Source: a virus. From it: a DNA stretch of 45,764 nucleotides. A program made the position numbers and the translations under genes. The stretch lies in IMG/VR virus record IMGVR_UViG_3300006052_000013; one strand, given 5' to 3'. Shown one piece after another: positions 27,011-39,987 of the stretch (positions are counted from its first letter, which is position 1; the number at the start of each line of letters is the position of its first letter). Below the pieces are notes generated by a model. That model saw only the letters and a list, made by a program, of their open reading frames with translations. It ran no database searches and was not told where the DNA came from.

Positions 27011-27097
27011 TTTGCTGTATGACACGGGAACAACCCCGTGTCTGTTCGGAGAGGAACAACAGCAAAATCATAGTACACCGATTACGGTCTGGTGTAC
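27011..27097 (-). ncRNA. candidate structured small RNA or 3' trailer with an anti-SD loop
   Basis: No ORF with an SD. Hairpin GUACACC..GGUGUAC, then a 3-way junction UUGCUGU/ACAGCAA enclosing UGUUC-CUCUCC-GAACA and GACACGGG..CCCGUGUC. Bounded by JH copy 1 and the terminator. Confidence 0.3.
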
Positions 27098-27126
27098 ATT
27101 ACCACGGGTTTACCCGTGGCCCTCTG
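27098..27126 (-). repeat. junction hairpin (JH) motif copy 1
   Basis: RNA sense CAGAGGGCCACGGGUAAACCCGUGGUAAU; abuts the UAA of 27127..27636. Confidence 0.8.
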
Positions 27127-27636
27127 TTATTCTCCGGTTTGTTCAAAGTGCCGGATACGTTCTTTGGTAATATTGACATACTCGGTAGTCCCCGGGGTGG
27201 CATCCCGAAGTCTTCTTTCAAAAGTTTCTGGCCAGTGACCTCGGCCGTAGTTGCGATAACCCCTTAAAAGAAACAAGCGTGCCGCGGCACTCTTATCTAT
27301 GCCAAGCCATTCCGCGGCGCGGTCGGGGGTATCCGTGTGAAAGATAAAATAAGATACGTCTGTTTCTTCATCTTTAATCGGTTTAACCTGTCCCGTCATT
27401 ACCAGAATATTTCCCGCCAGGCATCCCACCGTATTACAGGGGGGAACATCATCGGCCGTCGGCGAAAATTCTGATAATATTTGAGACACTCTTTTTTTCA
27501 AAACATCGCCTTCTTTGGCCGTTACTCCCCACAAACCCATGTTGAACCGAAGTGGTTCTTTCTCGATGTACTCAATTAACTGCTCGAGTTTCGCCACGGT
27601 TTCCGGGGATGGCTTTTCGTATTGTTGGTTTTCCAA
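27127..27636 (-). CDS. hypothetical protein
   Basis: TTG start after AAGGAGAGGAA; JH copy 2 lies upstream. Confidence 0.55.
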   Translation of the reverse strand: MENQQYEKPSPETVAKLEQLIEYIEKEPLRFNMGLWGVTAKEGDVLKKRVSQILSEFSPTADDVPPCNTVGCLAGNILVMTGQVKPIKDEETDVSYFIFHTDTPDRAAEWLGIDKSAAARLFLLRGYRNYGRGHWPETFERRLRDATPGTTEYVNITKERIRHFEQTGE

Positions 27637-27665
27637 ATTCCTCTCCTTGATAACGGAAGATATCC

Positions 27666-27694
27666 GTTACACCGGGTTTCCCCGGTGCCCTCTG
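27666..27694 (-). repeat. JH motif copy 2
   Basis: CAGAGGGCACCGGGGAAACCCGGUGUAAC; 2 nt after the UAA of 27697..28209. Confidence 0.75.
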
Positions 27695-27696
27695 GT

Positions 27697-28209
27697 TTAT
27701 GCCGCCTTCTTTTTGTTGGCATTCCGGACTTTGACGCGACGTTGCATCTCGGCCGAACGTTCTTCCGGAGACATTTTGTCCCAGTAACTTTTCGCCCCGA
27801 TGGCAACTTTTGATTTTCTTTTGGTTTTCGCCCATCGCAATCGCTGGGCCTGGGCAATCCGGTTCCGTGCCGACTTGGACAGACGACGTTTCAATGGTTT
27901 GTCATCATGTGAACGAACATGAATCGTCGTCGTGCCAGGGGCGATTTCATTCCCTTGGTCGGTTGCTCCCCGCATCTGGGGCAAATGTTGGGTACCGTCC
28001 AATAACTCCCCGCGCGTCTCGGCGAGAAGAAGCGTTCCCACCCAATGGGCAGCGTCGGGCGGAGTGATCGCTCCGCCTGTCTCTGCTCCGAGGGCGTTAA
28101 GCTGCGCTTTGATATCCCGGTAAAGGTAACCGAGCCGGAATGCCGCAGTTTGGAAAATGGAATGACTTTCCTTAGTGCTCCCATACTGTTTTCCTCTCCT
28201 TGGTTTCAT
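27697..28209 (-). CDS. hypothetical basic protein
   Basis: ATG after GAGGAUAAAAAC; C-terminus RLRWAKTKRKSK...NANKKKAA. Confidence 0.55.
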   Translation of the reverse strand: MKPRRGKQYGSTKESHSIFQTAAFRLGYLYRDIKAQLNALGAETGGAITPPDAAHWVGTLLLAETRGELLDGTQHLPQMRGATDQGNEIAPGTTTIHVRSHDDKPLKRRLSKSARNRIAQAQRLRWAKTKRKSKVAIGAKSYWDKMSPEERSAEMQRRVKVRNANKKKAA

Positions 28210-28238
28210 GTTTTTATCCTCATAACGGACAGTAGTCC

Positions 28239-28268
28239 GTTACCGTGGGTTTACCCCACGGCCCTCTG
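28239..28268 (-). repeat. JH motif copy 3
   Basis: CAGAGGGCCGUGGGGUAAACCCACGGUAAC; abuts a UAA. Confidence 0.8.
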
Positions 28269-28676
28269 TTACGCGAGTTCATTCATTGCACTAGCTTGTT
28301 CAAAATCCGACAACGTTCCCTCGAATGTTGCTCCGCAACTGCACGAAACTTTGTAGTCTAGAGAAAAACCATAGAACATTTTCGTTCCTCTTCCCTTGCC
28401 CTCGCTTTTTGTGGCCGGTTCTAAATCTGAACCATTACCATTGACGGAGAGGTCGTGTTCATCGCCCTCGTGGTCTTCGGGTACATACCCAGGAATATCC
28501 TGAGTTGCGCTGATATTTGCATCTTTCAATTCTTCGCCGCATTCGCCGCATTTCAATATTACTCGAACATCGGCCCGGACCTCGGCCGCGATGAGGTCCA
28601 CTTCCAAATCACCTTCTAACTCAACTTCATGGGGGTCTTCATAGGGAACAAACTTATTGCAACTTGGACAACGCAT
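28269..28676 (-). CDS. Zn-ribbon protein
   Basis: Start reset to the ATG after AGGAGAGGAAA (the track ORF reads through the UTR as MLPYQERK). CPSC...CGEC. Confidence 0.55.
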   Translation of the reverse strand: MRCPSCNKFVPYEDPHEVELEGDLEVDLIAAEVRADVRVILKCGECGEELKDANISATQDIPGYVPEDHEGDEHDLSVNGNGSDLEPATKSEGKGRGTKMFYGFSLDYKVSCSCGATFEGTLSDFEQASAMNELA

Positions 28677-28741
28677 TTTCCTCTCCTGATATGGCAACAA
28701 ATAAGCCGTTGGCTTATTTGTTGAGGTTTCCCCTCATTGCC
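28677..28741 (-). promoter_or_regulatory. Y-shaped 5'-UTR element copy A
   Basis: AUGGCAA-U-GAGGGGAAACCUC-A-ACAAAUAAGCCAACGGCUUAUUUGU-UGCCAU-AUC-AGGAGAGG. Confidence 0.6.
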
Positions 28742-28768
28742 ATTACCGGCCCGTGGGCCGGCCCTCTG
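28742..28768 (-). repeat. JH motif copy 4
   Basis: CAGAGGGCCGGCCCACGGGCCGGUAAU; abuts a UAA. Confidence 0.8.
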
Positions 28769-28987
28769 TTACTGAATACCCCGCGCCGGTGGTACGTGGT
28801 GTGCGTCCGGACGCAATACCCCCGGCGGAACTTCCATATCGGGCGGCGGCGCACATCGGTTCTGAGATAGAAGCGCCTGTTGCATAATCTCCCAGGCCTT
28901 TTCCTGTCGCCGGGCCAAAGAGAATACATACCATAGGTACAATACTCCCAGTAAAATTAACGCCAAACTTGCCAAACCTTCATTCAT
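28769..28987 (-). CDS. small single-pass membrane protein
   Basis: Start reset to MNEGLASLALILLGVLYLWYVF after GGUAAGGAGGGAACAACA. Confidence 0.5.
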   Translation of the reverse strand: MNEGLASLALILLGVLYLWYVFSLARRQEKAWEIMQQALLSQNRCAPPPDMEVPPGVLRPDAHHVPPARGIQ

Positions 28988-28999
28988 TGTTGTTCCCTC

Positions 29000-29029
29000 C
29001 TTACCACGGGTATTACCCCGCGGCCCTCG
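29000..29029 (-). repeat. JH motif copy 5
   Basis: CGAGGGCCGCGGGGUAAUACCCGUGGUAAG; has a G-U pair; the sigma ORF stop UAA lies in the loop. Confidence 0.8.
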
Positions 29030-30362
29030 GTTGTTCTTCGGTGACCGGCGCCATCCAGTGCAGTTTTCCATCCGATTCCAGGATTAATTCTTTATCTTGG
29101 CATCGACGGATGATCGAATAGGCCTGACCATTTGTGGTACCCGCGGTCATCATCTTCTGAACTAATTCGTTCTTAGGAAGAGGCCCATCGGCGAGTATCT
29201 GTTTTAAGACCGGTTCCCAATATCCTCGTGGTGAACGAGTCTGCGGGGCATTTCCATTGACCTCATCATGGGCCGTCGCATTAATCGACTTCTTTCCCGT
29301 GATAATATCGTGGGCACTTGTCAGTTGTTCAATCACCGCGGTCCACTTACGGGCCTCGGCCTCGGATTCCGCGGCCTGCCGGGTATAAAACTGTACCTTG
29401 CGATGGGCATCAGATATCAAAGACTCGATGGTCGGTGGTGATCCACTTGGTATTTGTTCCATTGTTTTCTCTCCTTGTTGTTTTAGTTGAAAGAGATAGT
29501 TTTGATGAACAATCTCTTCCTGGGTATACTGCCGAACCGGCCCCGGTGCTGTGACCGTCCGGGGGGGACGGAGATTCACGGGGGTTTTTGCCAGAAGTCC
29601 GTGCGACGTAAATATTTGATTCGGGGCACGAGGGTCGCGTCCGCTCAGATGGTAATAACTACCCAGTTCCGTTTCATTGAATCTGGACGCCCCCGCATTC
29701 CGTGAACTTCGTATTTGCGTCGGTGGTGGACTCCCGATGTGTTCCCGGGCGGCCGCGGCGACCAGTTTTTCGCGCCGCAACCTTCGTTTTTTCTTGCTCA
29801 TTGATTTGCTCATTGATTTGCTCTCCCACAACACTCGAAGATCACTCAAACCGTGTGATTGATAGGCCTTTACGGCCCCGACGGACAAATTTAAAATTCC
29901 GGCGGTTTCTTCCAAAGTTTTTTCTTCCAGAAATCTAAGAAACAACACGCGGCGCCGGCTCCTATTCAAATACGGTAACAAGCGCAAAAAATGCTCACGT
30001 GTGATCCAGGAATCTATGGTTTTATCCGGAGTATCCGGCAAATCCAGGGTGTTTCCATCTTCATTGATGGGATTATCCAAGGATACTTCTGAAAGATTGT
30101 TCTTTCTTCGTAGGTACATCAAAAATTCCCGGTGCGCAATTTGATGCAACCAGGAACTTAATTTGGCCTCACCTCGAAAATCGCCGATGGCCAGAAAGGC
30201 CTTCGTAAAGGTCACCTGGGCCAGTTCTTCCACGGCGTCTTCATTCAGTTGCCAATATTTGCGCAAAGTTTTTTTTACCCGCGATAACTGGTCACGATAT
30301 ATTTGGGAGAACGCGTCTTGATCGCCGGATTTTGCACGATCTAATAATTCTTTTTCTTCCAC
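29013..30362 (-). CDS. ECF-like sigma-70 family factor with a ~270-aa C-terminal extension
   Basis: Region 2: DAFSQIYRD...SWLHQIAHREFLMYLRRK. Region 4: RRRVLFLRFLEEKTLEETAGILNLSVGAVKAYQSHGL. GTG start after AAAGGAGAACGUAA. Confidence 0.8.
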   Translation of the reverse strand: MEEKELLDRAKSGDQDAFSQIYRDQLSRVKKTLRKYWQLNEDAVEELAQVTFTKAFLAIGDFRGEAKLSSWLHQIAHREFLMYLRRKNNLSEVSLDNPINEDGNTLDLPDTPDKTIDSWITREHFLRLLPYLNRSRRRVLFLRFLEEKTLEETAGILNLSVGAVKAYQSHGLSDLRVLWESKSMSKSMSKKKRRLRREKLVAAAAREHIGSPPPTQIRSSRNAGASRFNETELGSYYHLSGRDPRAPNQIFTSHGLLAKTPVNLRPPRTVTAPGPVRQYTQEEIVHQNYLFQLKQQGEKTMEQIPSGSPPTIESLISDAHRKVQFYTRQAAESEAEARKWTAVIEQLTSAHDIITGKKSINATAHDEVNGNAPQTRSPRGYWEPVLKQILADGPLPKNELVQKMMTAGTTNGQAYSIIRRCQDKELILESDGKLHWMAPVTEEQPRAAG

Positions 30363-30384
30363 TTACGTTCTCCTTTGATATTTA

Positions 30385-30415
30385 CTTACCGGGGAAATAT
30401 ATCCCCCGGCCCTCG
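30385..30415 (-). repeat. JH motif copy 6
   Basis: CGAGGGCCGGGGGAUAUAUUUCCCCGGUAAG. Confidence 0.8.
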
Positions 30416-30430
30416 TTTTTACCACTACTT

Positions 30431-30601
30431 TTACACTTTCAAAACGGGATTTTCGTCCATCACCGCACGCTCGGCCAGAAACCCCGCCGCGGTGGCGGTG
30501 ATTTCTATCTCGCGGTGCCGATCCCGCACGGTGATTGTGCGGCCATTTAATAATTCTCGCAATTCTTTTTCTCCGAGTTCTACTTTAATTGGCTCTTTCA
30601 T
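30431..30601 (-). CDS. small hypothetical protein (56 aa)
   Basis: Start reset to MKEPIKV after AGGAGAGGAAC. Confidence 0.5.
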   Translation of the reverse strand: MKEPIKVELGEKELRELLNGRTITVRDRHREIEITATAAGFLAERAVMDENPVLKV

Positions 30602-30665
30602 GTTCCTCTCCTGGTATGGCAAACATTGCGGCGAAGCCGCATGTTTGAGGTTTCCCCTCATTGCC
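30602..30665 (-). promoter_or_regulatory. Y-shaped 5'-UTR element copy B
   Basis: AUGGCAA-U-GAGGGGAAACCUC-A-AACAUGCGGCUUCGCCGCAAUGUU-UGCCAU-ACC-AGGAGAGGAAC-AUG. Confidence 0.6.
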
Positions 30666-30694
30666 ATTACCGTGGATTTACCCACGGCCCTCTG
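30666..30694 (-). repeat. JH motif copy 7
   Basis: CAGAGGGCCGUGGGUAAAUCCACGGUAAU. Confidence 0.8.
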
Positions 30695-30714
30695 AGTTAC
30701 TAGGAATGGGCTTA

Positions 30715-30906
30715 TTAGGCAAACTGATAATCACTTTTTTTTGCTCGAAAGCCCTTTTTCTTGAGAAGACTGGCATCCCACCCCGTGATATCCTTCACGT
30801 CCTTTACGGCATACTCCCAGGCCTCGCTGGCAGATGTTCCGGGGCGATGATACAAAACTACCCCTTCTCGATCTACCAACATCCAAACCCGATCTAATTC
30901 TGGCAT
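30715..30906 (-). CDS. small hypothetical protein (63 aa)
   Basis: Start reset to MPELDRVW after AGGAGGGAAAGC. Confidence 0.5.
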   Translation of the reverse strand: MPELDRVWMLVDREGVVLYHRPGTSASEAWEYAVKDVKDITGWDASLLKKKGFRAKKSDYQFA

Positions 30907-30922
30907 GCTTTCCCTCCTGTTC

Positions 30923-30953
30923 ATTAACGCGGCAGGTTCGCCGCGTCCCTCTG
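30923..30953 (-). repeat. JH motif copy 8 (variant)
   Basis: CAGAGGGACGCGGCGAACCUGCCGCGUUAAU; abuts a UAA. Confidence 0.7.
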
Positions 30954-32057
30954 TTATTGTTTGACCAAATAACTTGTATCAACATCTACGTCTTCCCCGT
31001 TTCTCGACAACCGAGTTTGGTGCGAAATCAAGGAAAGATTTTCTTGAAAACTTGCAAGTTTGGGAACCGCCGTCCGTCCGATCATTGCAATGTAACCCCG
31101 ACCCCGCCAGGGTGGCATGTGATTTCTGGACAAACGTTCGACGATGGTTCGATAGTACAACATGCGATTGGTAAAGGACTCCGGGGCACCGGGTACGGGC
31201 GGCGTAAAGCTGATCTGAATATAATCAGTCCAACTTTTATCTGCGCCCGAGGCCCGCAGTTTGTACCGGGCCAGGGCGCCCGCGAAGTACCGCGCCAACT
31301 TGACATTGGCCGCGAACTCCGTAATGCCCGGTTCCCAGGCCCGATACCGTCGACGGTAATACTCCCGTTGCTCCGTGGGAATTTCCCCAGACCAACCCAA
31401 GTCCTGCAATTTTGCCCAAGACTTGGATTTATTCCGGTCATAACCCGGTTGGTCACTATCCACCAGATACTCGTACATGGCATCTTGTATCTGGTCGGCC
31501 AGGGCAAAGTAGGCCTCATAGGTAGTCAGATGTTTTTCCCGGACCGGATTCACAAAATGAAGATTTAGAATCCGAACCAAGGCCGACAAACCCTGTGAGT
31601 ACTCTTCCACCATTTCTGCTCCGACTGGGCCATCTTCTTGGTAGAGATACTCCGCGTTGATATCTTCAACACGAAGATTAAACTGGATAGATGGTGTGAA
31701 GACTTCCCGAACCTGCCGGTAAAGGCAGGCGAGTTGTTTCAGTGCCATGACCTCGGCCACATCCAGAATGGCCCCCGTCTTGGCCTTTCGGCCGCCCCAG
31801 GGAACCAGCACCGGAATTGCCTTACCCAGTTCGAGACTCTGCCGGATGACCGCCCGAATTGTCACCAGTGCCTCGGGTTTCGGGATCGGACCATAACGAT
31901 TCTGGTTCGTTCCCAAGAGAATACCGGTGATAATCTCGAGCAATGATTGTTTTGGAGGAGCCGCGGCGACGGGAAACTCCCGCCACAGAAACTCATCAAT
32001 CAAAGACGAGTAGGGATCGTCCACGGGTGATGTAACTTGGTACGTTGCTGTACTCAT
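30954..32057 (-). CDS. hypothetical protein (367 aa)
   Basis: Start reset to MSTATYQ after AGGAGAGGAAC; no family assigned with confidence. Confidence 0.6.
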   Translation of the reverse strand: MSTATYQVTSPVDDPYSSLIDEFLWREFPVAAAPPKQSLLEIITGILLGTNQNRYGPIPKPEALVTIRAVIRQSLELGKAIPVLVPWGGRKAKTGAILDVAEVMALKQLACLYRQVREVFTPSIQFNLRVEDINAEYLYQEDGPVGAEMVEEYSQGLSALVRILNLHFVNPVREKHLTTYEAYFALADQIQDAMYEYLVDSDQPGYDRNKSKSWAKLQDLGWSGEIPTEQREYYRRRYRAWEPGITEFAANVKLARYFAGALARYKLRASGADKSWTDYIQISFTPPVPGAPESFTNRMLYYRTIVERLSRNHMPPWRGRGYIAMIGRTAVPKLASFQENLSLISHQTRLSRNGEDVDVDTSYLVKQ

Positions 32058-32127
32058 GTTCCTCTCCTGGTATGGCAAACCAAGAGACGAAGTCTCTTGG
32101 TTCTGAGGTTTCCCCTCATTAACCATA
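32058..32127 (-). promoter_or_regulatory. Y-shaped 5'-UTR element copy C
   Basis: GUAUGGUUA-AUGAGGGGAAACCUCA-GAACCAAGAGACUUCGUCUCUUGGUU-UGCCAUAC-C-AGGAGAGGAAC-AUG. Confidence 0.6.
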
Positions 32128-32153
32128 CTTACCGTGGTTTCCCACGGCCCTCG
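32128..32153 (-). repeat. JH motif copy 9
   Basis: CGAGGGCCGUGGGAAACCACGGUAAG. Confidence 0.8.
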
Positions 32154-32156
32154 TCA

Positions 32157-32220
32157 TATCTCTAAATCTTGGAATGGCATTACATGAATATCTCTAAATC
32201 TTGGAATGGCATTACATGAA
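32157..32220. repeat. 32-bp tandem duplication (2 copies) at a gene 3' end / JH junction
   Basis: tatctctaaatcttggaatggcattacatgaa occurs twice and shifts the stop codon of 32180..32419. Confidence 0.85.
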
Positions 32221-32419
32221 TACCTCCCTGGAAGTGACCCATGAACACGATGGAATGATGAAACGGGTACTTAACCTTTAACAAATTTCTGTACCGTTCA
32301 ATTTTTGTTCCGATGGTCATTCCACTTTCAGAGGCGTCGTCCGGTCCTACTTCGACGATTGCCAGATTGTTCATGTAATCTTCATTGGAATGGTGGTTGA
32401 TAACGTAGATTAGTTTCAT
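32180..32419 (-). CDS. small hypothetical protein (79 aa)
   Basis: Start reset to MKLIYVINHH after AGGAGAGGAAC; C-terminus altered by the 32-bp duplication. Confidence 0.5.
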   Translation of the reverse strand: MKLIYVINHHSNEDYMNNLAIVEVGPDDASESGMTIGTKIERYRNLLKVKYPFHHSIVFMGHFQGGIHVMPFQDLEIFM

Positions 32420-32486
32420 GTTCCTCTCCTGGTACAGCAACAAGAGACGGTTTAAGTTTCTTGTTTGGGATTTTTTCCCGGCTGTA
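32420..32486 (-). promoter_or_regulatory. Y-shaped 5'-UTR element copy D
   Basis: GUACAGC-C-GGGAAAAAAUCCC-A-AACAAGAAACUUAAACCGUCUCUUGUU-GCUGUAC-C-AGGAGAGGAAC-AUG. Confidence 0.6.
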
Positions 32487-32514
32487 CTTACCGCGGGTTT
32501 CCCCGCGGCCCTCG
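32487..32514 (-). repeat. JH motif copy 10
   Basis: CGAGGGCCGCGGGGAAACCCGCGGUAAG. Confidence 0.8.
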
Positions 32515-32550
32515 TATCACTGCGAGAATCGCAGAGATATGTTTTTATTT

Positions 32551-32709
32551 TTACTGCGCCGCCACGGCGCTCGCCGCACTTGAAAAAACGTTATTGGAAT
32601 TGCTTCCAATCAGGCGAACCGTACCGACGACGATTACCAGAATTACCGCCAGCATCACGGCGTATTCTGCGATATCTTGCCCTTCTTCGGACTTCCACAG
32701 TGTTTTCAT
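32551..32709 (-). CDS. Flp/Fap-family (type IVb, Tad) pilin-like peptide
   Basis: MKTLWKSEEGQDIAEYAVMLAVILVIVVGTVRLIGSN...; G-x4-EY processing-type motif plus a hydrophobic helix. Start reset after AAAGGAGAAAACA. Confidence 0.6.
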   Translation of the reverse strand: MKTLWKSEEGQDIAEYAVMLAVILVIVVGTVRLIGSNSNNVFSSAASAVAAQ

Positions 32710-32720
32710 TGTTTTCTCCT

Positions 32721-32828
32721 TTAGTGAACTTGCCGATACAACAACCACAACAAAAAAAACCACGCGGTTGCGGAGATATCAAACCAGGTAAACCCCATGA
32801 AGACGGGGTGCAAGTTAAATGGCCACAT
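32721..32828 (-). CDS. small hydrophobic peptide (35 aa)
   Basis: MWPFNLHPVFMGFTWFDISATAWFFLLWLLYRQVH; ATG after GAAAGGAGGACGCGCGAU; below the track cutoff. Confidence 0.35.
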   Translation of the reverse strand: MWPFNLHPVFMGFTWFDISATAWFFLLWLLYRQVH

Positions 32829-32865
32829 ATCGCGCGTCCTCCTTTCAAGTCAATGGGGAGATTGA

Positions 32866-32891
32866 CTTACCGTGGTTTCCCACGGCCCTCG
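32866..32891 (-). repeat. JH motif copy 11
   Basis: CGAGGGCCGUGGGAAACCACGGUAAG; abuts a UAA. Confidence 0.8.
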
Positions 32892-33014
32892 TTAACGAAC
32901 CACGCTATAAACCAGATTAACATTGTCGCCGATTAGGTGGCGACTGCCGATGATAATGATTACGACGACCGCCAGTACTACTACGTACTCTCCGAGTTGT
33001 TTAAGTTTGTTCAT
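32892..33014 (-). CDS. Flp-pilin-like small peptide (40 aa)
   Basis: MNKLKQLGEYVVVLAVVVIIIIGSRHLIGDNVNLVYSVVR; ATG after CCGGAGGAAACA; below the track cutoff. Confidence 0.4.
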   Translation of the reverse strand: MNKLKQLGEYVVVLAVVVIIIIGSRHLIGDNVNLVYSVVR

Positions 33015-33028
33015 TGTTTCCTCCGGTA

Positions 33029-33056
33029 CTTACCGGCCCAGATGGGCCGGCCCTCG
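33029..33056 (-). repeat. JH motif copy 12
   Basis: CGAGGGCCGGCCCAUCUGGGCCGGUAAG; abuts a UGA. Confidence 0.8.
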
Positions 33057-33272
33057 TCACGCAGTAATAGGTTCCAGGGTAACCTTGAAACCCTTGAGGT
33101 CCCCGAGTTCAGAGATACCCAGTTCTTTCATCGCCTCCAGACGGTTGACGTAGATGTTGGTGAGTACGCCGGACTGATCCTTGGGAAGGCTGTATTTGAC
33201 TGCTCCCTTCTTGGGATCAACCACGCGCAGCTCTACGGTTACCGTCTTGGCCTTTGGTTTTTCGGGTGCCAT
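33057..33272 (-). CDS. small hypothetical protein (71 aa)
   Basis: Start reset to MAPEKPKAK after GUGGAGAGGAAAAAU. Confidence 0.5.
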   Translation of the reverse strand: MAPEKPKAKTVTVELRVVDPKKGAVKYSLPKDQSGVLTNIYVNRLEAMKELGISELGDLKGFKVTLEPITA

Positions 33273-33326
33273 ATTTTTCCTCTCCACTTTTAAGGTCACC
33301 GCCGGATTCGTGCCCCCGGCTTGTGC

Positions 33327-33354
33327 CTTACCGTGGGTTTCCCCACGGCCCTCG
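33327..33354 (-). repeat. JH motif copy 13
   Basis: CGAGGGCCGUGGGGAAACCCACGGUAAG. Confidence 0.8.
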
Positions 33355-33391
33355 TATCACTGCGATAATCGCAGAGATATGTTTTGAGTTT

Positions 33392-33604
33392 CTATTCACC
33401 ACCGTTGAAAGCACCGTCGGCGAGTAAATCGCAGGCGATGTCCATCGACTTGACGACGACCGCGGTCAGTGTTAATGCCTCGTGTCGCAAAAGAAAAGCG
33501 GCCACGATCAAAATCACTAACACGATCAGTTTAAACCACATACTGTGGTAAACCCGCCAAAATCTATTCTTGGCCCGGAGACGGCTTTGTCGTCTTCGGT
33601 TCAT
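33392..33604 (-). CDS. small membrane protein (70 aa)
   Basis: MNRRRQSRL...WFKLIVLVILIVAAFLL; the ATG lies 4 nt after the upstream stop (coupled). Confidence 0.4.
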   Translation of the reverse strand: MNRRRQSRLRAKNRFWRVYHSMWFKLIVLVILIVAAFLLRHEALTLTAVVVKSMDIACDLLADGAFNGGE

Positions 33605-33608
33605 TGAT

Positions 33609-33749
33609 TTATACTCGTGCGCCGCCGGCGATGGCAACTGATGCCACCCCACCCAGAAACGCAAGTTCAATCAGCAACCGATACACGTCATGAGAAACAT
33701 ACCACATGATCGCGTCTTGCAGACGTTTGACCACTTTGTCTCGGGACAT
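33609..33749 (-). CDS. small membrane peptide (46 aa)
   Basis: MSRDKVVKRLQDAIMWYVSHDVYRLLIELAFLGGVASVAIAGGARV; ATG after UAGGAGAGGAACAAU; below the track cutoff. Confidence 0.4.
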   Translation of the reverse strand: MSRDKVVKRLQDAIMWYVSHDVYRLLIELAFLGGVASVAIAGGARV

Positions 33750-33803
33750 ATTGTTCCTCTCCTAATAAGGCTCACTCCGGTTTTCGTGCCCCCGGATGGT
33801 GGC

Positions 33804-33833
33804 CTTACGGGTCACCGGAGTGACCCGCCTTCG
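33804..33833 (-). repeat. JH motif copy 14 (variant, GAAGGC flank)
   Basis: CGAAGGCGGGUCACUCCGGUGACCCGUAAG. Confidence 0.65.
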
Positions 33834-33843
33834 GGGAAACAAC

Positions 33844-34059
33844 TTAGGCGGCCTGGTTCAAATCGTACCGGGCCAAATCATGCTGGTTTGCATGGTGAAC
33901 CTTTTCGGCCCACTTTACGGCGACGGCCGAGGTTAGATAGTTGGTTTCTTCGACCGATCCGTCTGAGTGTTCCAGAATAATACGATCGGCGGCCTCGATG
34001 GCCTTGTTGATTGCTTCTTGACGACGCATATCGCGATTGTTGATACTATCCGTGATCAT
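33844..34059 (-). CDS. small hypothetical protein (71 aa)
   Basis: ATG after UAAGGAGAGGAAA. Confidence 0.5.
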   Translation of the reverse strand: MITDSINNRDMRRQEAINKAIEAADRIILEHSDGSVEETNYLTSAVAVKWAEKVHHANQHDLARYDLNQAA

Positions 34060-34093
34060 TTTCCTCTCCTTACAAGGCTCACTCTATTGTGGC

Positions 34094-34122
34094 CTTACCG
34101 TGGGTTTTCCCCACGGCCCTCG
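34094..34122 (-). repeat. JH motif copy 15
   Basis: CGAGGGCCGUGGGGAAAACCCACGGUAAG; abuts a UAA. Confidence 0.8.
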
Positions 34123-34380
34123 TTATATTTGTAGTGGTTTATTTTCGTTGAGACTGCGAGTAACCGCCGCCCAGGAAAATTCCAGACGCATTTCCCGTAC
34201 CTGGGGCACGTCCAGATTCATATGGGAGTAAACGGAAACTACGCAATAATCTAACATTCGACCAGAAGTAACGGCAGTAAGAATGACCCGTGGGCCAACC
34301 TGGAGTTTGACCATGGGTAATTCTTTTTTGACCTTTTCCTCGGTCCATTCCGGATTGGGTGTCGATTTTGCTTTTTTCAT
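34123..34380 (-). CDS. small hypothetical protein (85 aa)
   Basis: ATGA overlap with the upstream gene. Confidence 0.5.
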   Translation of the reverse strand: MKKAKSTPNPEWTEEKVKKELPMVKLQVGPRVILTAVTSGRMLDYCVVSVYSHMNLDVPQVREMRLEFSWAAVTRSLNENKPLQI

Positions 34381-34601
34381 ACCTTTACCATTCCTCCCCA
34401 AGACCGTTGATAAAATACCCGGAACCCGGCGGTTTGAACATCGATCACCGCGCGACGCCTCGCGGTCTCACCCGGAAAGATGAGGTACTTAAACGGCCCC
34501 GCCTCGGTGGTACCGTACGTAATCGTCGGATGAATCACCCGTCGTATTTCGTCGAATTCGCTCTTTTTGACGGCGAACTCAGGCTGATTTGGTCTTGGCA
34601 T
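34377..34601 (-). CDS. small hypothetical protein (74 aa)
   Basis: Start reset to MPRPNQ after AGGAGGCCCGGU. Confidence 0.5.
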   Translation of the reverse strand: MPRPNQPEFAVKKSEFDEIRRVIHPTITYGTTEAGPFKYLIFPGETARRRAVIDVQTAGFRVFYQRSWGGMVKV

Positions 34602-34797
34602 ACCGGGCCTCCTGAATGGTCCCATTTTCGATGACCTTTTTGATCAGACTAGTTTCAAATCCACTTAACTGGAAGCCAAATGGATTGGGCGCCGAACCCT
34701 TTTGTCCGGTCAGTAACCATGTACGATATGCCCTCGCATACCGCCGTTGATTACAAGGTAATCGATGAATGTAATCATCAATAATTTTGTTTTGCAT
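34579..34797 (-). CDS. small hypothetical protein (72 aa)
   Basis: Start reset to MQNKIIDDY after AGGAGAGGAAU. Confidence 0.5.
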   Translation of the reverse strand: MQNKIIDDYIHRLPCNQRRYARAYRTWLLTGQKGSAPNPFGFQLSGFETSLIKKVIENGTIQEARYAKTKSA

Positions 34798-34864
34798 ATT
34801 CCTCTCCTGGTATGGCAGTGTCGACGGCGGAGGCCGTCGCACTCTGAGGTTTCCCTCTGCCACA
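34798..34864 (-). promoter_or_regulatory. Y-shaped 5'-UTR element copy E
   Basis: GUGUGGCAG-A-GAGGGAAACCUC-A-GAGUGCGACGGCCUCCGCCGUCGACACU-GCCAUAC-C-AGGAGAGGAAU-AUG. Confidence 0.55.
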
Positions 34865-34894
34865 CTTACCGTGGAAGTTATCCCACGGCCCTCG
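34865..34894 (-). repeat. JH motif copy 16
   Basis: CGAGGGCCGUGGGAUAACUUCCACGGUAAG. Confidence 0.8.
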
Positions 34895-34895
34895 T

Positions 34896-35123
34896 TCAAA
34901 TACGTTCTACCAGAAAAGGTTCGCCCAAAAACTGGCCATCCTCGAAGGGCGCCACGTTAAATTCAGAACCACACTTAGAACATTTTATGTTTTGACTTAA
35001 CCCACCCCGTCGTCCTTGAAAAAATGTGTCGTTATTACAGTCTGGACAAACGTGACGGTTGGCAATGGCATCAAAAACTGGATCAACAACGGGTGCTTTT
35101 TTCTTACGAAATGGGTTCCACAT
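34896..35123 (-). CDS. Zn-ribbon protein
   Basis: CPDC...CSKC; ATG after AAAGGAGAACGACAAAG. Confidence 0.55.
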   Translation of the reverse strand: MWNPFRKKKAPVVDPVFDAIANRHVCPDCNNDTFFQGRRGGLSQNIKCSKCGSEFNVAPFEDGQFLGEPFLVERI

Positions 35124-35143
35124 CTTTGTCGTTCTCCTTTGTA

Positions 35144-35172
35144 CTTACCACGGGTTACCCCCGTGGCCCTCG
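35144..35172 (-). repeat. JH motif copy 17
   Basis: CGAGGGCCACGGGGGUAACCCGUGGUAAG; abuts a UAA. Confidence 0.8.
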
Positions 35173-35298
35173 TTAGTGACGCGTTATAAACCATTGAACC
35201 ATCAAGATGACCCCGGTAATCGAAAACCCAACGATTACCGCCCCAATCATCGTGGCGATCCAACCATGTTGAGGCTCCTCTTCGTCATTGTTTTTCAT
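35173..35298 (-). CDS. small membrane peptide (41 aa)
   Basis: MKNNDEEEPQHGWIATMIGAVIVGFSITGVILMVQWFITRH; the start overlaps the upstream gene end. Confidence 0.35.
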   Translation of the reverse strand: MKNNDEEEPQHGWIATMIGAVIVGFSITGVILMVQWFITRH

Positions 35299-35467
35299 CT
35301 CTGGTCGCCTTATGATAGGCGCGAACCCGAACAGAATGAACAAAATTTGACATCGGTTCTTTTTTAGAATCTGTTTGGCGAAAGCAAAATTCATTAGACC
35401 CGGCCCGGCAACGAGGGCAGGGGATTAAAATAATGCGATCCCGACTGGCGGGTTTTACTCTTGGCAT
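35285..35467 (-). CDS. small Zn-binding protein (60 aa)
   Basis: Start reset to MPRVKPAS after AAAGGAGAAAACA; CPRC motif. Confidence 0.5.
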   Translation of the reverse strand: MPRVKPASRDRIILIPCPRCRAGSNEFCFRQTDSKKEPMSNFVHSVRVRAYHKATRDEKQ

Positions 35468-35483
35468 TGTTTTCTCCTTTGTA

Positions 35484-35513
35484 CTTACCGGCCCATGACT
35501 GGGCCGGCCCTCG
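35484..35513 (-). repeat. JH motif copy 18
   Basis: CGAGGGCCGGCCCAGUCAUGGGCCGGUAAG. Confidence 0.8.
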
Positions 35514-35533
35514 TTTACCACATTATGAATTAT

Positions 35534-35824
35534 TCATGCCGCCCGCTTTGGCATGACTTTTAAGACTCCCCGCCGTTTGGCAAGATCGAACAGTTGGTAG
35601 TGAATTGCCTGTTCGACGGGCATCGTCGTCGCCAATTTACCCTGGCGTTTAACCTCGGCGATGACCTCGCCACTCGTGGCCTTTTTGAGTTTCTTAATGG
35701 CCAATACGGTGGCGCCGGCGTGGGTATGGGGTTTTAATTTGGTGATATCCACCTTCGGTTTTGCAACCAGCGCGTAAAACTGTCGTCCCGTTGCAGACTG
35801 CACGGGCTTCTTTTGACTTTTCAT
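35534..35824 (-). CDS. DNA-binding-like protein, paralogue of the globular part of 25754..26164
   Basis: Shared pattern R.(L/F)Y.LVA..K.D......H.GA.V.A..KL...T...VI.EV..QGK..T.M; start reset after AUAGGAGAGAUUCAA. Confidence 0.55.
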   Translation of the reverse strand: MKSQKKPVQSATGRQFYALVAKPKVDITKLKPHTHAGATVLAIKKLKKATSGEVIAEVKRQGKLATTMPVEQAIHYQLFDLAKRRGVLKVMPKRAA

Positions 35825-35884
35825 TTGAATCTCTCCTATCACGAACAAATTTGCTTCCAACGCACGGCCTGGAGGGACGAGTGC

Positions 35885-35911
35885 GTTACCACGGTTTCCC
35901 GTGGCCCTCTG
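35885..35911 (-). repeat. JH motif copy 19
   Basis: CAGAGGGCCACGGGAAACCGUGGUAAC; abuts a UAA. Confidence 0.8.
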
Positions 35912-36178
35912 TTATTGAACAGTAATCGGAATAAACCCCGCCGATCGTAGGCAGGACGCACAACTGACCGAGAAGTGATATATTTGTCTTTTTGGGTCGG
36001 TTTCTTCAGGACAACTCTTGCAACTGATTACGCCCATGGAAGTTTCGGTGGCCGGCTCAAAAAACTCCACGTCGCCGGGGTTACCGACATGTTCACATAC
36101 CAAATAACCTGCTTCCCGAACCTCCGGATATTTTTCACATCCGACGATCGGGTATACATCAATATTATCTACTGTCAT
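35912..36178 (-). CDS. Cys-rich hypothetical protein
   Basis: ATG after UAAAGGAGAAACA. Confidence 0.55.
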   Translation of the reverse strand: MTVDNIDVYPIVGCEKYPEVREAGYLVCEHVGNPGDVEFFEPATETSMGVISCKSCPEETDPKRQIYHFSVSCASCLRSAGFIPITVQ

Positions 36179-36197
36179 TGTTTCTCCTTTATTTGGT

Positions 36198-36228
36198 CGT
36201 AACGCCGGGGATCACCCGGCGCCCTCTG
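36198..36228 (-). repeat. JH motif copy 20 (variant)
   Basis: CAGAGGGCGCCGGGUGAUCCCCGGCGUUACG; the upstream ORF stop UGA lies in the loop. Confidence 0.7.
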
Positions 36229-36388
36229 AATATTCTTCCTCTGTCATCTCTTCATCAAGATCAATAAACTCGACGGTGTATTTCATCCCTTTAGAATATT
36301 TCTCTGGAATTAAAGACTCCGCCAAAAGAACCGCCTGGGTGCGGTTTTCTGCCTCCAGTACAGTTTCGTACTTGACCCGCCATCTCAT
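36212..36388 (-). CDS. small acidic protein (58 aa)
   Basis: MRWRVKYETVLEAENR...EEYSEGAG; ATGA overlap with the KTSC gene; below the track cutoff. Confidence 0.4.
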   Translation of the reverse strand: MRWRVKYETVLEAENRTQAVLLAESLIPEKYSKGMKYTVEFIDLDEEMTEEEYSEGAG

Positions 36389-36627
36389 GCCACCCTCCGG
36401 CCGTTTTCCACCAATTCATACTTGTAACGATATCGAACGAACTGGTAGAAAAAACGACCCTTGGAATGTGCCCGTTGAAAGCGGCCGAAGGTCAGGGGAC
36501 CTACGCCAAAGTAACGATACATGCGGCCGGTCAGGAATCTTACGTACAGAATCCGCCGCAGCACGTCATATCCGATACTTTGGATATTGGTCGAATCTAC
36601 CTCGATCATTCCCACTTGTGTTGTCAT
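36385..36627 (-). CDS. KTSC-domain protein
   Basis: VDSTNIQSIGYD...LYVRFLTGRMYRYFGVGPLTFGRFQRAHSKGRFFYQFVR. Confidence 0.65.
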   Translation of the reverse strand: MTTQVGMIEVDSTNIQSIGYDVLRRILYVRFLTGRMYRYFGVGPLTFGRFQRAHSKGRFFYQFVRYRYKYELVENGRRVA

Positions 36628-36636
36628 ATTTCCCTC

Positions 36637-36665
36637 CTTAAACCCCCTCAGAGGGGGTTCCCTCG
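36637..36665 (-). repeat. JH motif copy 21 (variant)
   Basis: CGAGGGAACCCCCUCUGAGGGGGUUUAAG; the upstream ORF stop UGA lies in the loop. Confidence 0.65.
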
Positions 36666-36884
36666 CCTTTCCATCTTGATCATTCCGTACATAATCATCG
36701 CCAGTCCCATGGCCACGACTTCCTCCGGCCGGGGGTAACTTTCAACATGTTTCACCATGGCCGTGGTGAGCGGTATATTCGGCGACACACCCTTTTTAGC
36801 CAGGCGTGTGCGCAGTTCATTTAGGGAGATGACTCCTAGTTCTTCCAATCTTTTCTTGGTTTTTTCTACATTTTGTCGGTTCAT
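36648..36884 (-). CDS. small hypothetical protein (78 aa)
   Basis: Start reset to MNRQNVEK after ACAAGGAGAGAAUUUCAA. Confidence 0.5.
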   Translation of the reverse strand: MNRQNVEKTKKRLEELGVISLNELRTRLAKKGVSPNIPLTTAMVKHVESYPRPEEVVAMGLAMIMYGMIKMERRGNPL

Positions 36885-36903
36885 TTGAAATTCTCTCCTT
36901 GTA

Positions 36904-36931
36904 CTTACCACGGATTTCTCCGTGGCCCTCG
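36904..36931 (-). repeat. JH motif copy 22
   Basis: CGAGGGCCACGGAGAAAUCCGUGGUAAG. Confidence 0.8.
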
Positions 36932-36953
36932 TTATCAGGGACACTACATCTTG

Positions 36954-37364
36954 TTAAATGGGTTCGATTTTATTGACCTCATCCCATTTCAGGCCCAAAA
37001 CGTGAAAGGCCATCCGGGCGTGATAACCAAAATGGTTATCCCCCGTGGTGACTATCCGTTTGCGGAGTTCCAGCTTATCTGCCGTATCGGAGGTACTAGA
37101 TAAACAACTGGCCTGATTACCGTTCTCCCATAGGCCAAGACGGCCTCGGATTACCTCGGTCGTCGCCCATTTGGCATCATGGTCGCTGATGCCATTTTGC
37201 GAGTTCTGTTCATCCGGACCGCGCAACGCCGAAAGAACCCACCATAGGGCCTTCCCCTGTGATATTTTGTAGAGATTGTCGCCACCCCGGTCTAGTACAT
37301 CCGTCGGTGACGAATTTTTGTTGATTTCTTTGGCAATCTCCCGCAGCAATTCAATCCATTTCAT
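36954..37364 (-). CDS. hypothetical protein (136 aa)
   Basis: ATG after UAGGAGAGGAAUUAAC. Confidence 0.55.
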   Translation of the reverse strand: MKWIELLREIAKEINKNSSPTDVLDRGGDNLYKISQGKALWWVLSALRGPDEQNSQNGISDHDAKWATTEVIRGRLGLWENGNQASCLSSTSDTADKLELRKRIVTTGDNHFGYHARMAFHVLGLKWDEVNKIEPI

Positions 37365-37398
37365 GTTAATTCCTCTCCTATTTAAAGATTTGATTGGT

Positions 37399-37428
37399 CT
37401 TACGGGTCACCGAAGTGACCCACCCTCG
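37399..37428 (-). repeat. JH motif copy 23
   Basis: CGAGGGUGGGUCACUUCGGUGACCCGUAAG; UUCG loop; abuts a UAA. Confidence 0.8.
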
Positions 37429-38991
37429 TTAGTCGTTCTGTTTTTCTTTGTACTCCATAGACCGCACGATGACCCCGAACAACAGGTCGCCCAGGCGGTG
37501 CAACATACCCGGAATCACGATCGCGTTGGGGTTGTGGGAGGTTCCCAGAAGGGCGCCAAACCCAAAGTAACCTTTGTGCAACCGGAGTTCCGGGTCGGCC
37601 AGTCCGGGAGACTTTTGAATTTCTCCGTCGTAGTCGTATTGCATTTCATTGTGCCGGAAACTGCAACCGAAGTTCACCAGATCGTCGGGGCGATTCTCAT
37701 AACCGGTCAGGTTATAAAACTCATCCACTTTGGTTTCGGTCTGGGAACGACCCCGCCGGATCACAAAGTCTTTTATGATCCGGTCCCACCCGGTGACATC
37801 TGACACGATGCGCCCCGTCCGCAGTGCCCGGTAGTAATCGGCCCGGTTCTGGGGAAGATCGCCCTCGTAATCTACCAGGTTCGAGGCAGAAAGATCACGA
37901 AATACCCGGTACTTCGTGTTTTTTTGGATGATGTAATCATCCGGATTAAATACGGAGTCCTTGGGATAGTGGGTCAATACCGAATAATCGGTATCAATTC
38001 CTCGATCCTGGGCATCGTGAAGTTGCCGGAGCATCTCGGCGGTAGAGTTTCCCAGGCCAATAAAGAGAAATTTCTTTCCCTTAATTTGCGGGTAAGTGAG
38101 GCGCTTTTGCCAACGGTTACCGGCGTGGGTGACCTCCGCAGATGTCACCATACGGTGGCGATCCGAGAGGTTTTTCGGTTTTCCCAGTCCCAGGCAGTTG
38201 ATGACGATGGGGTACTCCTTAAAACTTTGACCACGGTCATAAACCCCGTGGGCAAGATTGTTCGGAGTAACCGTGGTGACGTCGTTGGTGATAACGTTTA
38301 ATGAATTGGCGTTCTGGATATTTTGCAGAAAATCCCGTACCTCCGATCCTTCGCCGGGCGCCGGTTCCAGGGCATACTCGCCCAGGACCAATCTACGAGG
38401 ATTGTTTCGACTCCCGCCTTTGATATCTTCCCGTGACCAGATTCCAAATGGTTTGCCCTTTTCATAAAGAGTTACATTTTTAAATCCGGTGCGACTCAGG
38501 CCATATCGTACAATTTGGCCCGCCGCCCCACCACCGATGATGGCAATGGGTGTGTTCCCAATGTCCAAATTGATCACGTTATAAAACGTGGACAAACGTC
38601 CGGCGATACCACTCCCAAAAAAATTATTGGAAGTATTTACCGGAGAGACGGCCAAGGCGCGATCAATTACTTGATTTTGCTCGGGCGTTCCCCGGTAAGT
38701 AACACAGTCGGCGGGTTTCGAGAACAACGAAACTTCACCCAAATAATCCAACACCGGAAATTTTTGGTATATTTCATCTCCGGAAACATTACGCAAGACG
38801 TAACTTCCCAGAAACTTTCCCAGCATTTTCCGACGGCCCATTTCAACAATGGCCTGGTTACTCCAACCTTTATCGCGCGTCATACGTTTTAACACGGATA
38901 TCGGATTGGATAACATTATTGGACTAACGACGTTGTACGACTTCATCGCTTCAACTGCCAAGAACGACTTCAACATTTCTTGGTGATTCAT
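37429..38991 (-). CDS. two-dinucleotide-binding-domain flavoprotein (FAD/NAD(P)-dependent oxidoreductase or monooxygenase-like)
   Basis: IAIIGGGAAGQIVRYGL (GxGxxG) and FLFIGLGNSTAEMLRQL (a second Rossmann motif); start reset to MNHQEML after ACAGGAGAAGAACAA. Confidence 0.7.
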   Translation of the reverse strand: MNHQEMLKSFLAVEAMKSYNVVSPIMLSNPISVLKRMTRDKGWSNQAIVEMGRRKMLGKFLGSYVLRNVSGDEIYQKFPVLDYLGEVSLFSKPADCVTYRGTPEQNQVIDRALAVSPVNTSNNFFGSGIAGRLSTFYNVINLDIGNTPIAIIGGGAAGQIVRYGLSRTGFKNVTLYEKGKPFGIWSREDIKGGSRNNPRRLVLGEYALEPAPGEGSEVRDFLQNIQNANSLNVITNDVTTVTPNNLAHGVYDRGQSFKEYPIVINCLGLGKPKNLSDRHRMVTSAEVTHAGNRWQKRLTYPQIKGKKFLFIGLGNSTAEMLRQLHDAQDRGIDTDYSVLTHYPKDSVFNPDDYIIQKNTKYRVFRDLSASNLVDYEGDLPQNRADYYRALRTGRIVSDVTGWDRIIKDFVIRRGRSQTETKVDEFYNLTGYENRPDDLVNFGCSFRHNEMQYDYDGEIQKSPGLADPELRLHKGYFGFGALLGTSHNPNAIVIPGMLHRLGDLLFGVIVRSMEYKEKQND

Positions 38992-39025
38992 TTGTTCTTC
39001 TCCTGTATAAGCCCGATTCATCGGA

Positions 39026-39055
39026 CTTACACCCCCGTTTCCGGGGATGCCCTCG
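39026..39055 (-). repeat. JH motif copy 24
   Basis: CGAGGGCAUCCCCGGAAACGGGGGUGUAAG; has a U-G pair. Confidence 0.75.
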
Positions 39056-39060
39056 TATCA

Positions 39061-39303
39061 CTAAGGAACAAACTGGTACCAAAGAAGTGTCCCCGGTGGA
39101 TAGGGAACCTCCTCGTGTTTTTGTTTCGTGAACCAGATGGCAACCCGTTCCAGATCGGCGTCTGATGCGAGTGCCTCGGTATACTTGGTCTCACCGTCCG
39201 ATTGCAGATTTTCCTTTACAAAGTTATACTGCCGGATATCTGCGAGGGAGGCCTCGACCAGGGCGGTTTCTTTGTCGCCTTTGATAATCAATCGTATTGA
39301 CAT
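39061..39303 (-). CDS. small hypothetical protein (80 aa)
   Basis: ATG after CGAGAGGAUAAC, 1 nt after the upstream stop. Confidence 0.5.
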   Translation of the reverse strand: MSIRLIIKGDKETALVEASLADIRQYNFVKENLQSDGETKYTEALASDADLERVAIWFTKQKHEEVPYPPGTLLWYQFVP

Positions 39304-39304
39304 G

Positions 39305-39499
39305 TTATCCTCTCGTTTTTACCGGTTTGTGCGGGAAGTGAGAGTGACCGTGAGTACTTTTTGGCCAACTTGCCACCGCCGAACGGTGATGTCCCCTGCT
39401 ACCGCGGGAGGACGCCTCGGCGGGACGCGCAAGCCACGAAAAAAGTAGCAACAGTAACAGCAGCGGCCAAAGTGGCGCCAAATTCCTTACGATGTTCAT
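39305..39499 (-). CDS. small secreted-type His/Arg-rich peptide
   Basis: Signal-like LAPLWPLLLLLLLFSWLARPAEA, then SSRGSRGHHRS..THGHSHFPHKP. Confidence 0.45.
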   Translation of the reverse strand: MNIVRNLAPLWPLLLLLLLFSWLARPAEASSRGSRGHHRSAVASWPKSTHGHSHFPHKPVKTRG

Positions 39500-39593: not shown

Positions 39594-39595
39594 TG

Positions 39596-39983: not shown

Positions 39984-39987
39984 TTGC

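Follow-up and report, generated by a model that had tools for sequence, protein, structure and literature searches.

The DNA analysed here, referred to throughout as the window, is a stretch of 45,764 nucleotides (nt) belonging to the IMG/VR virus record IMGVR_UViG_3300006052_000013. Between positions 32,551 and 33,014 it carries two small genes, flp-P1 and flp-P2, the products of which (P1 and P2) are related to Flp, the major pilin of Tad (type IVc, alternatively IVb) pili. Both open reading frames (ORFs) had been predicted previously from the nucleotide sequence, and their coordinates and translations (Table 1) proved to be correct, each lying on the minus strand. It can be said with near certainty that a tailed soil phage of Terriglobia here carries, among an array of small genes of early type, an intact, host-derived gene for the major Tad pilin, together with a diverged paralogue that has lost the cleavage glycine along with the last part of the leader.

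The leader of P1 consists of 10 residues, MKTLWKSEEG, ending in Gly-10, and is followed by QDIAEY and a hydrophobic helix (AVMLAVILVIVVGTV after the Glu-Tyr pair) that aligned without gaps to a hidden Markov model (HMM) of host Flp pilins; the resultant motif G10/QDIAE15Y16 (G-x4-EY) corresponds to the prepilin-peptidase site G/xxxxEY. When P1 was used to search a database of 5.8 billion proteins, all 8000 scored candidates returned E ≤ 0.01, the best of them with 78–89% identity and E about 1e-18, and many bore the title 'Flp pilus assembly pilin Flp' or 'Flp family type IVb pilin' with an Acidobacteria or Terriglobales source. Acidobacteriota names (Terriglobia, Acidobacteriaceae, Sulfotelmatobacter and others) were also attached to nearly all of the 80 best matches to P1 in species-representative genomes. 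Two of the homologues, P0016 (80% identity) and P0112 (84%), are each the first gene of a tad/cpa operon with the order flp, RcpC/CpaB, secretin, CpaE-like ATPase, T2SSE ATPase (cpaF) and two T2SSF proteins (tadB, tadC), while P0013 is an orphan flp copy in a 4.7 Mb Terriglobales genome. The original prediction had found this product a close fit to the Flp prepilin pattern and had proposed that the putative host be checked for tad/cpa loci, and on both counts the Terriglobia homologues, some of them heading tad operons, bear it out. By homology, P1 is a genuine Flp/Tad prepilin close to those operon-heading pilins, and the host clade, as judged from the pilin alone, is probably Terriglobia (Acidobacteriota), a clade with Tad systems.

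The HMM, which was built from 119 host Flp sequences, matched P1 with a score of 114.7 bits. Lack of a match to the Pfam family Flp_Fap (PF04964) had been put forward as grounds for rejecting the identification, and P1 scored 16.0 bits over profile positions 2–45 of 46, below the gathering threshold of 32.2; the test is nevertheless invalid for this clade, genuine host pilins being equally sub-threshold (P0016, 20.7; P0112, 16.0; P0013, 14.9; P0033, 20.6 bits). Because operon-encoded host pilins themselves score 15–21 bits, the low value obtained with P1 reflects the model, which is insensitive to the Terriglobia clade, and not the peptide. A profile that included P1 was also compared with solved Tad pilins, giving E values (8u2b, 0.025; 8u1k, 0.088) that were equalled by unrelated membrane proteins; the corresponding register, marginal at these values, sets profile positions 15–49 against chain residues 5–39 and places P1 Glu-15 on mature residue 5. 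A tblastn search of 50,697 deposited phage genomes with P1 and a Caulobacter PilA sequence yielded no match, although the low-complexity filter may mask hydrophobic matches in such a search.

Comparison with host variation indicated that P1 contains no residue that is foreign to its class, each one occurring somewhere among the 119 host sequences. The block G-Q-D-I-A-E-Y is intact, and in the hosts is invariant with the exception of the Ile (117/119); all other pilin-specific positions, namely the leader Trp, EEG/QD, the Glu-5/Tyr-6 pair and the tail, are likewise retained. P1 departs from the consensus only in the leader, which at 10 residues is of a length found in 5/119 hosts and stands at the short end of the host range, and in the C-terminal tail (SSAASAVAAQ as against SSVASSIQ). 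At the DNA level, the 34-codon core of flp-P1 differs from host genes at 18–24 of 102 nt, nearly all of the changes being synonymous, with 0–3 amino-acid changes (20 synonymous and 0 non-synonymous codon differences in the case of L004), and host flp genes diverge as much among themselves as they do from this core. The G+C content of third codon positions (GC3) is 0.58 in flp-P1, 0.48–0.63 in phage genes and 0.67–0.70 in host flp genes. The predominance of synonymous change in the core, combined with a phage-like GC3, suggests that the coding function of P1 has been maintained, in phage or host, under pilin-like constraint and that the gene is not fresh debris from any sampled host. Very recent capture from a sampled host was ruled out, the closest of 100 genes differing at 18/102 core nt.

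P2, which the original prediction had described as a shorter relative of the prepilin, was confirmed as such by a score of 33.6 bits against the host-Flp HMM, in a gap-free alignment to HMM positions 17–49; none of 2000 shuffled versions reached that value (mean -0.3, sd 2.1, maximum 13.9). Its helix, VVVLAVVVIIIIGS, retains the Glu-Tyr pair, the hydrophobic character and the conserved Gly, Asn and Ser positions of the core. By way of contrast, Leu occupies the column of the cleavage Gly, the G/xxxxEY site is missing, and both the C-terminal tail and a comparable leader are absent. In the multiple alignment P2 resembles P1 minus six residues (WKSEEG), a gap that coincides precisely with the last stretch of the leader and the site of peptidase cleavage. 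Neither Pfam nor NCBIfam gave a match to P2, and PHROG gave only a weak one (phrog_32755, E 0.0097); word-indexed and exhaustive searches of libraries of 5.8 billion and 1.84 billion proteins recovered no relative of P2 beyond itself. The peptide is best described, from its alignment, as a true but diverged and degenerate Flp paralogue. The loss of G-x4-EY is rare in hosts, being seen in 1/85 Flp matches across 80 host loci; the sole ORF concerned (L096:8157-8315, plus strand) is a diverged copy that follows the main flp match at a distance of some 10 nt, and may represent either a pseudopilin or a host equivalent of P2.

The remainder of the window is that of a phage. Among its genes are those for a family-A DNA polymerase, two helicases, a primase, an RNA ligase, a DNA methylase, a sigma factor, ThyA and ThyX; the window thus looks like the part of a virulent phage genome devoted to replication and early functions, and neither an integrase nor a repressor was found in it. 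A 71.7 kb ENA contig matches positions 22551..42709 with 100% identity, and a 99.5 kb contig from another sample carries a protein and the replication genes of the window plus, further out and just beyond the window edge, an endolysin and a tail protein. The window is a portion of a 72–100 kb tailed-phage contig, and the viral context originally claimed for the pilin genes is upheld by the replication genes within it and the endolysin and tail protein of the 99.5 kb contig. The flp region is identical across three independent assemblies; because these agree exactly, the arrangement is not chimeric, and an assembly artefact was ruled out by the identical sequence of contigs assembled independently from several samples. 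Scans of the larger ORFs, and the precomputed Pfam list for 22551..42709, revealed no T2SSE, T2SSF, secretin, RcpC or A24 peptidase in the window, and the earlier statement that Tad secretion genes are lacking therefore holds for it; the phage flp genes are not encoded beside tad/cpa genes (CpaB/RcpC, secretin, CpaE, CpaF/TadA, TadB, TadC). No Rfam family or tRNA was detected in the window, a blastn comparison of 30000..36000 with the 50,697 deposited phage genomes matched nothing, and no related phages were recovered from IMG/VR by way of the sigma factor and a 367-residue neighbour of the flp cluster.

All genes around the flp region lie on the minus strand, and are punctuated by an intergenic element of the form ACGAGG(G)-hairpin-(G)TAAG, 23 copies of which occur between 30385 and 43704 (0.26 expected by chance), every one on the minus strand. 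Since the 22 different sequences represented all preserve stems of 7–9 bp (dG -12.6 to -19.8), it is structure, not sequence, that is conserved. The first A of the element often coincides with the third base of the stop codon before it, and a Shine-Dalgarno sequence plus start codon follow within 14–37 nt in approximately two-thirds of copies and within ~55–120 nt in most others; the sigma-factor gene (29013..30362) is situated just downstream of the last element. One hairpin-delimited cassette consists of flp-P2, and another of flp-P1 with a 35-residue ORF, from which it follows that the flp genes are integrated into the phage's own gene-expression architecture. Possible roles for the element are those of a cassette boundary, an attenuator or a site at which RNA is processed or stabilised. 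A search of IMG/VR with the element pattern gave five single, non-hairpin chance matches and no array, Rfam gave no match, and a scan of the array for sigma-70 promoters and intrinsic terminators gave no signal above shuffles.

The original prediction had placed small hydrophobic peptides between and beside the two pilin genes. These ORFs (32721..32828 and 33392..33749) do exist and are hydrophobic; as relatives of Flp they were ruled out, there being no match to the Flp HMM. The first of them, the 35-residue ORF rich in Trp and Phe, was called as a gene on two of the three independent contigs, gave no Pfam, NCBIfam or PHROG match, and is probably translationally coupled to flp-P1; its status as a real gene is uncertain. 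The larger of the ORFs at 33392..33749 has no Shine-Dalgarno sequence and was not called by gene finders. Overall, scans of P1, P2 and six neighbours with Pfam, NCBIfam and PHROG returned sub-threshold matches only.

Two repeats were observed in the same region. A 36-nt block, AAAACATATCTCTGCGATT[C/A]TCGCAGTGAT, containing a 6-bp hairpin occurs twice on the minus strand (32516..32551 and 33356..33391), each time directly upstream of a hairpin element and in one case right after the flp-P1 stop codon. A 32-nt unit, atatctctaaatcttggaatggcattacatga, is perfectly duplicated in tandem (32158..32221) at the 3' end of a gene for 79–87 residues downstream of flp, and alignment offsets suggest that the independent contig L002 carries one copy fewer.

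Table 1. Positions of the pilin genes and associated elements in the window, and of flp in other viral contigs
Feature	Position	Strand	Remarks
flp-P1, complete Flp (type IVc/Tad) prepilin, 52 residues	32551..32709	-	translation MKTLWKSEEGQDIAEYAVMLAVILVIVVGTVRLIGSNSNNVFSSAASAVAAQ
Shine-Dalgarno AAGGAG of flp-P1	32716..32721	-	direct reading; one-base overlap with TAA (32721..32723) of the 35-residue ORF
flp-P2, leaderless Flp-derived peptide, 40 residues	32892..33014	-	translation MNKLKQLGEYVVVLAVVVIIIIGSRHLIGDNVNLVYSVVR
Shine-Dalgarno GGAGG of flp-P2	33020..33024	-	direct reading; 5 nt from ATG
35-residue Trp/Phe-rich hydrophobic ORF, MWPFNLHPVFMGFTWFDISATAWFFLLWLLYRQVH	32721..32828	-	strong Shine-Dalgarno AAGGAGGA 8 nt upstream of ATG
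Hairpin element (ACGAGGG-hairpin-GGTAAG) directly upstream of flp-P2	33029..33057	-	dG -18.0
Hairpin element between flp-P2 and the 35-residue ORF/flp-P1 cassette	32866..32892	-	first A is the final base of the flp-P2 stop codon
Hairpin element closing the flp-P1 cassette	32487..32515	-	preceded by the 36-nt block repeated at 33356..33391
Further hairpin elements (examples)	32128..32154; 35484..35514	-	array members
flp in contigs L013, L014, L016 and L018			terminase and/or portal in flanks; flp 1-5 kb from the terminase large-subunit gene
Two full-length flp copies in contig L014	922-1221 and 4385-4573		
flp in contig L015	L015:10001-10150		Ala for Gly at -1; helicase and adjoining 1943-residue tail protein
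flp in contig L012			Erf recombinase in flank

Possession of such a gene is not peculiar to this phage. Seven further IMG/VR contigs carry a Terriglobia-type flp with 62–73% identity, and have no other gene in common with the window. Phage hallmark genes flank flp in six of the seven (Table 1), the remaining one, L017 from a 463 kb contig, being only putatively viral. It appears from these comparisons that flp has been captured repeatedly by unrelated viruses, and this apparent repetition argues for a selective benefit. Literature searches found no paper on phage-encoded Flp pilins.

Of the other genes in the window, that for the 367-residue protein (30957..32057, minus strand) adjoins the flp cluster and belongs to a family of 56, mostly metagenomic, two members of which carry Pfam PF05141 (DIT1_PvcA, isonitrile/dityrosine synthesis). 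Its homologues occur on the long, phage-like contigs L019–L021, with which the window otherwise shares nothing except a single additional ORF match in L021; these contigs have no flp within 10 kb of that gene and lack the hairpin element. Elsewhere, an 851-residue protein (18149..20704, minus strand) matched the Pfam Major Vault Protein shoulder with 93 bits, above threshold, together with a sub-threshold Vault_3 repeat and no PHROG match. A 128-residue gene (22283..22669, minus strand) is listed in precomputed annotation as Acb2_Tad1_hairpin, a sponge fold directed against the Thoeris and cyclic oligonucleotide-based antiphage signalling (CBASS) systems, an assignment that hmmscan at E ≤ 0.1 did not reproduce. 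Thymidylate synthases of both the ThyA type (5724..6557, minus strand) and the ThyX type (13213..13920, minus strand) are present; a dCMP deaminase is listed in the annotation of the phage locus, and a fusion resembling deoxynucleoside monophosphate kinase and uracil-DNA glycosylase lies at 6548..7462.

Flp prepilins enter the inner membrane, where TadV/CpaA cuts them after the Gly, and the Tad platform then polymerises them. Since the phage window contains no pilus machinery, any action of P1 or P2 on pili must use the TadV/CpaA and Tad platform of the host. Soon after infection, P1 and P2 would enter the inner membrane, where P1 would be cleaved and join the host pilin pool, while P2, predicted to be uncleavable, may remain there as an imitation of the pilin helix that cannot polymerise or that blocks the chain. 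The two would jointly alter or shut down the Tad pili of the infected cell, such that phages dependent on these pili, be they rivals or descendants of the phage itself, could no longer adsorb productively. Manipulation of the Tad pilin pool or pilus for superinfection exclusion, by analogy with prophage FimU, for which such a role has been shown, and with full-length and truncated phage PilA, for which it has been proposed, is accordingly offered as a tentative reading, favoured with rather less than even confidence. The functions put forward in the original prediction (poisoning or remodelling of Tad pili, superinfection exclusion and receptor masking) are plausible on the same analogy. A more elaborate version would have the two genes form a two-part 'anti-pilus' device, a processable Flp plus an evolved, non-cleavable helix in P2 (possibly with the coupled 35-residue peptide), that poisons TadV or the Tad platform or mimics a retracted-pilin signal, and this is considered unlikely.

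Several points weigh against superinfection exclusion. P1 has no residue outside host variation, and there is no sign in its sequence of a dominant-negative or receptor-masking change; masking would hinge on the C-terminal tail of P1 differing from that of the true host, failing which the active agent would more likely be P2 or dosage. P2 has been seen in a single phage genotype and could be a decaying duplicate. The 'early' timing is inferred from gene order only.

The first alternative is that P1 simply contributes to host fitness or adhesion, as a moron or in the manner of an auxiliary metabolic gene: by adding functional pilin it would keep an infected or lysogenised cell attached, in biofilm or to soil particles, near susceptible neighbours, with P2 being incidental. 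P1 is indeed indistinguishable by sequence from functional host pilins, flp lies 1–5 kb from terminase in four other viral contigs, which is a typical position for a moron of temperate phages, and extra orphan copies of flp are frequent in host genomes away from tad operons. Against this, the window, with neither integrase nor repressor, looks virulent, lytic infection would leave scant time in which to gain from pili, and the retention of a leaderless P2 goes unexplained. The explanation is doubtful.

A second alternative, quite improbable and framed purely by analogy, is that the phage hijacks signalling from the pilin pool: the helix of processed P1, or of P2, would mimic the signal of a retracted pilus to a host sensor kinase, reprogramming cyclic di-GMP or cell-cycle physiology and switching pili off secondarily. 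The precedent comes from Caulobacter, in which the cell senses its inner-membrane pool of Flp-type PilA by way of the N-terminal helix and a 17-residue peptide of PilA, CIP, acts through PleC; as a synthetic helix peptide it lowered susceptibility to phiCbK by 77% and attachment by 71% (Del Medico et al., PNAS 2020, PMC7196804). P2 is in essence a helix of this kind, extended by a few residues. However, leaderless cytosolic PilA gave no signal in Caulobacter (PMC7196804), and a leaderless peptide may insert wrongly. To our knowledge no PleC-type pathway has been described for Terriglobia.

The genes may also be neutral passengers, flp having been gained by illegitimate recombination and duplicated, with one copy now decaying and no function for the phage. 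Phages with the 367-residue gene but no flp within 10 kb of it, and the orphan state of P2 with its deletion across the processing site, are consistent with such a history. It is nevertheless a very improbable one: P1 is intact, with 0–3 amino-acid changes as against 18–24 nucleotide changes in its core and a phage-like GC3; each copy is preceded by a strong ribosome-binding site and lies within the cassette architecture; flp appears to have been acquired independently by six or seven unrelated viral contigs; and useless DNA is quickly purged from phage genomes. The least probable explanation is that these are generic membrane peptides with no pilus role, the helix having been co-opted as a transmembrane module (holin- or antiholin-like, depolarising or transporter-inhibiting) along with the neighbouring hydrophobic ORFs, a view to which the cluster of such ORFs and the loss from P2 of the pilin-specific processing site lend some colour, but which does not account for the retention in P1 of every pilin-specific position, none of them needed by a generic transmembrane peptide, nor sit well with an endolysin located in a different module outside the window.

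The identification of the two genes is thus supported by sequence comparison, and the superinfection-exclusion reading is plausible by analogy. As a protein, P1 is another Flp pilin; what is new is a phage-borne Tad pilin accompanied by a leaderless derivative, and the recurrence of this pilin type in unrelated viral contigs. Acidobacteriota are among the most abundant bacteria of soil, and hardly anything is known of the phages that infect them or of the receptors involved. The presence of a Tad pilin gene in a phage provides a direct link to Terriglobia for an otherwise unassignable phage of 72–100 kb, and flags Tad pili as a structure of concern to phages of Acidobacteriota. Were superinfection exclusion correct, the principle of phage pilins serving that end would extend from Pseudomonas type IVa pili to the Tad/Flp class, and P2 would be a candidate for a small peptide that inhibits Tad pili or mimics their signal, these pili serving adhesion and biofilm formation in many bacteria, including pathogens. 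We know of no natural phage-encoded counterpart of CIP; were the two-part device to be real, P2 would be the first natural counterpart of that synthetic peptide, and recurrent capture of flp would identify Tad pili as a major receptor, fought over by phages, among the Acidobacteriota of soil. If the genes merely add pilin, flp is an ordinary host-derived accessory gene.

Compared with the major pilins of the Flp/Fap family (PF04964, COG3847; Aggregatibacter Flp1, Caulobacter PilA, 8u1k, 8u2b), P1 is alike in its size (family members have about 45–90 residues), short charged leader ending in Gly, G/xxxxEY site, single helix and Glu at mature position 5; the system differs in that its genes lie in a phage window devoid of tad genes, and in having a P2 without cleavage site or C-terminal tail. 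Phage inhibitors of type IV pili that act on PilB or PilC and bring about superinfection exclusion include Tip (D3112), Aqs1 (DMS3) and PfsE (Pf). The outcome proposed here, pili lost or altered on the infected cell, resembles theirs, whereas those proteins are non-pilin inhibitors of the motor or platform and the agents here are pilin homologues. P2 resembles CIP (PMC7196804) in being a short, helix-only peptide of the Flp type, and differs in that CIP is a synthetic fragment acting via PleC and P2 is encoded by a phage.

The closest parallel is provided by the phage-encoded type IVa pilin homologues of Sztanko et al. (2026, Cell Rep, PMC12952977), who reported that prophage homologues of FimU join type IVa pili and block the adsorption of phages that bind the pilus tip. 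That study, in which neither Flp nor Tad is mentioned, described P-FimU in F10-like phages of Pseudomonas, full-length PilA homologues in Xylella prophages (P-PilA) and in virulent Pseudomonas phages, and an N-terminal-only PilA family in six Pseudomonas phages, for which incorporation into the pilus minus the phage-binding sites, or inhibition of assembly, was suggested (PMC12952977). In common with those homologues, the present system comprises a copy of a host subunit and a pair of full-length and truncated forms, shares the same proposed logic of exclusion, and occurs where virulent phages too are involved; it differs in belonging to the Tad/Flp class, in a machinery that has a TadV peptidase without methylation, and in its host phylum, Acidobacteriota. 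P1 is almost identical to host pilins, whereas the type IVa homologues (PMC12952977) are ~50% diverged from theirs. The truncations also differ in kind: that of the PilA family removes the C-terminal globular domain, which Flp lacks, and that of P2 removes the leader and the cleavage site.

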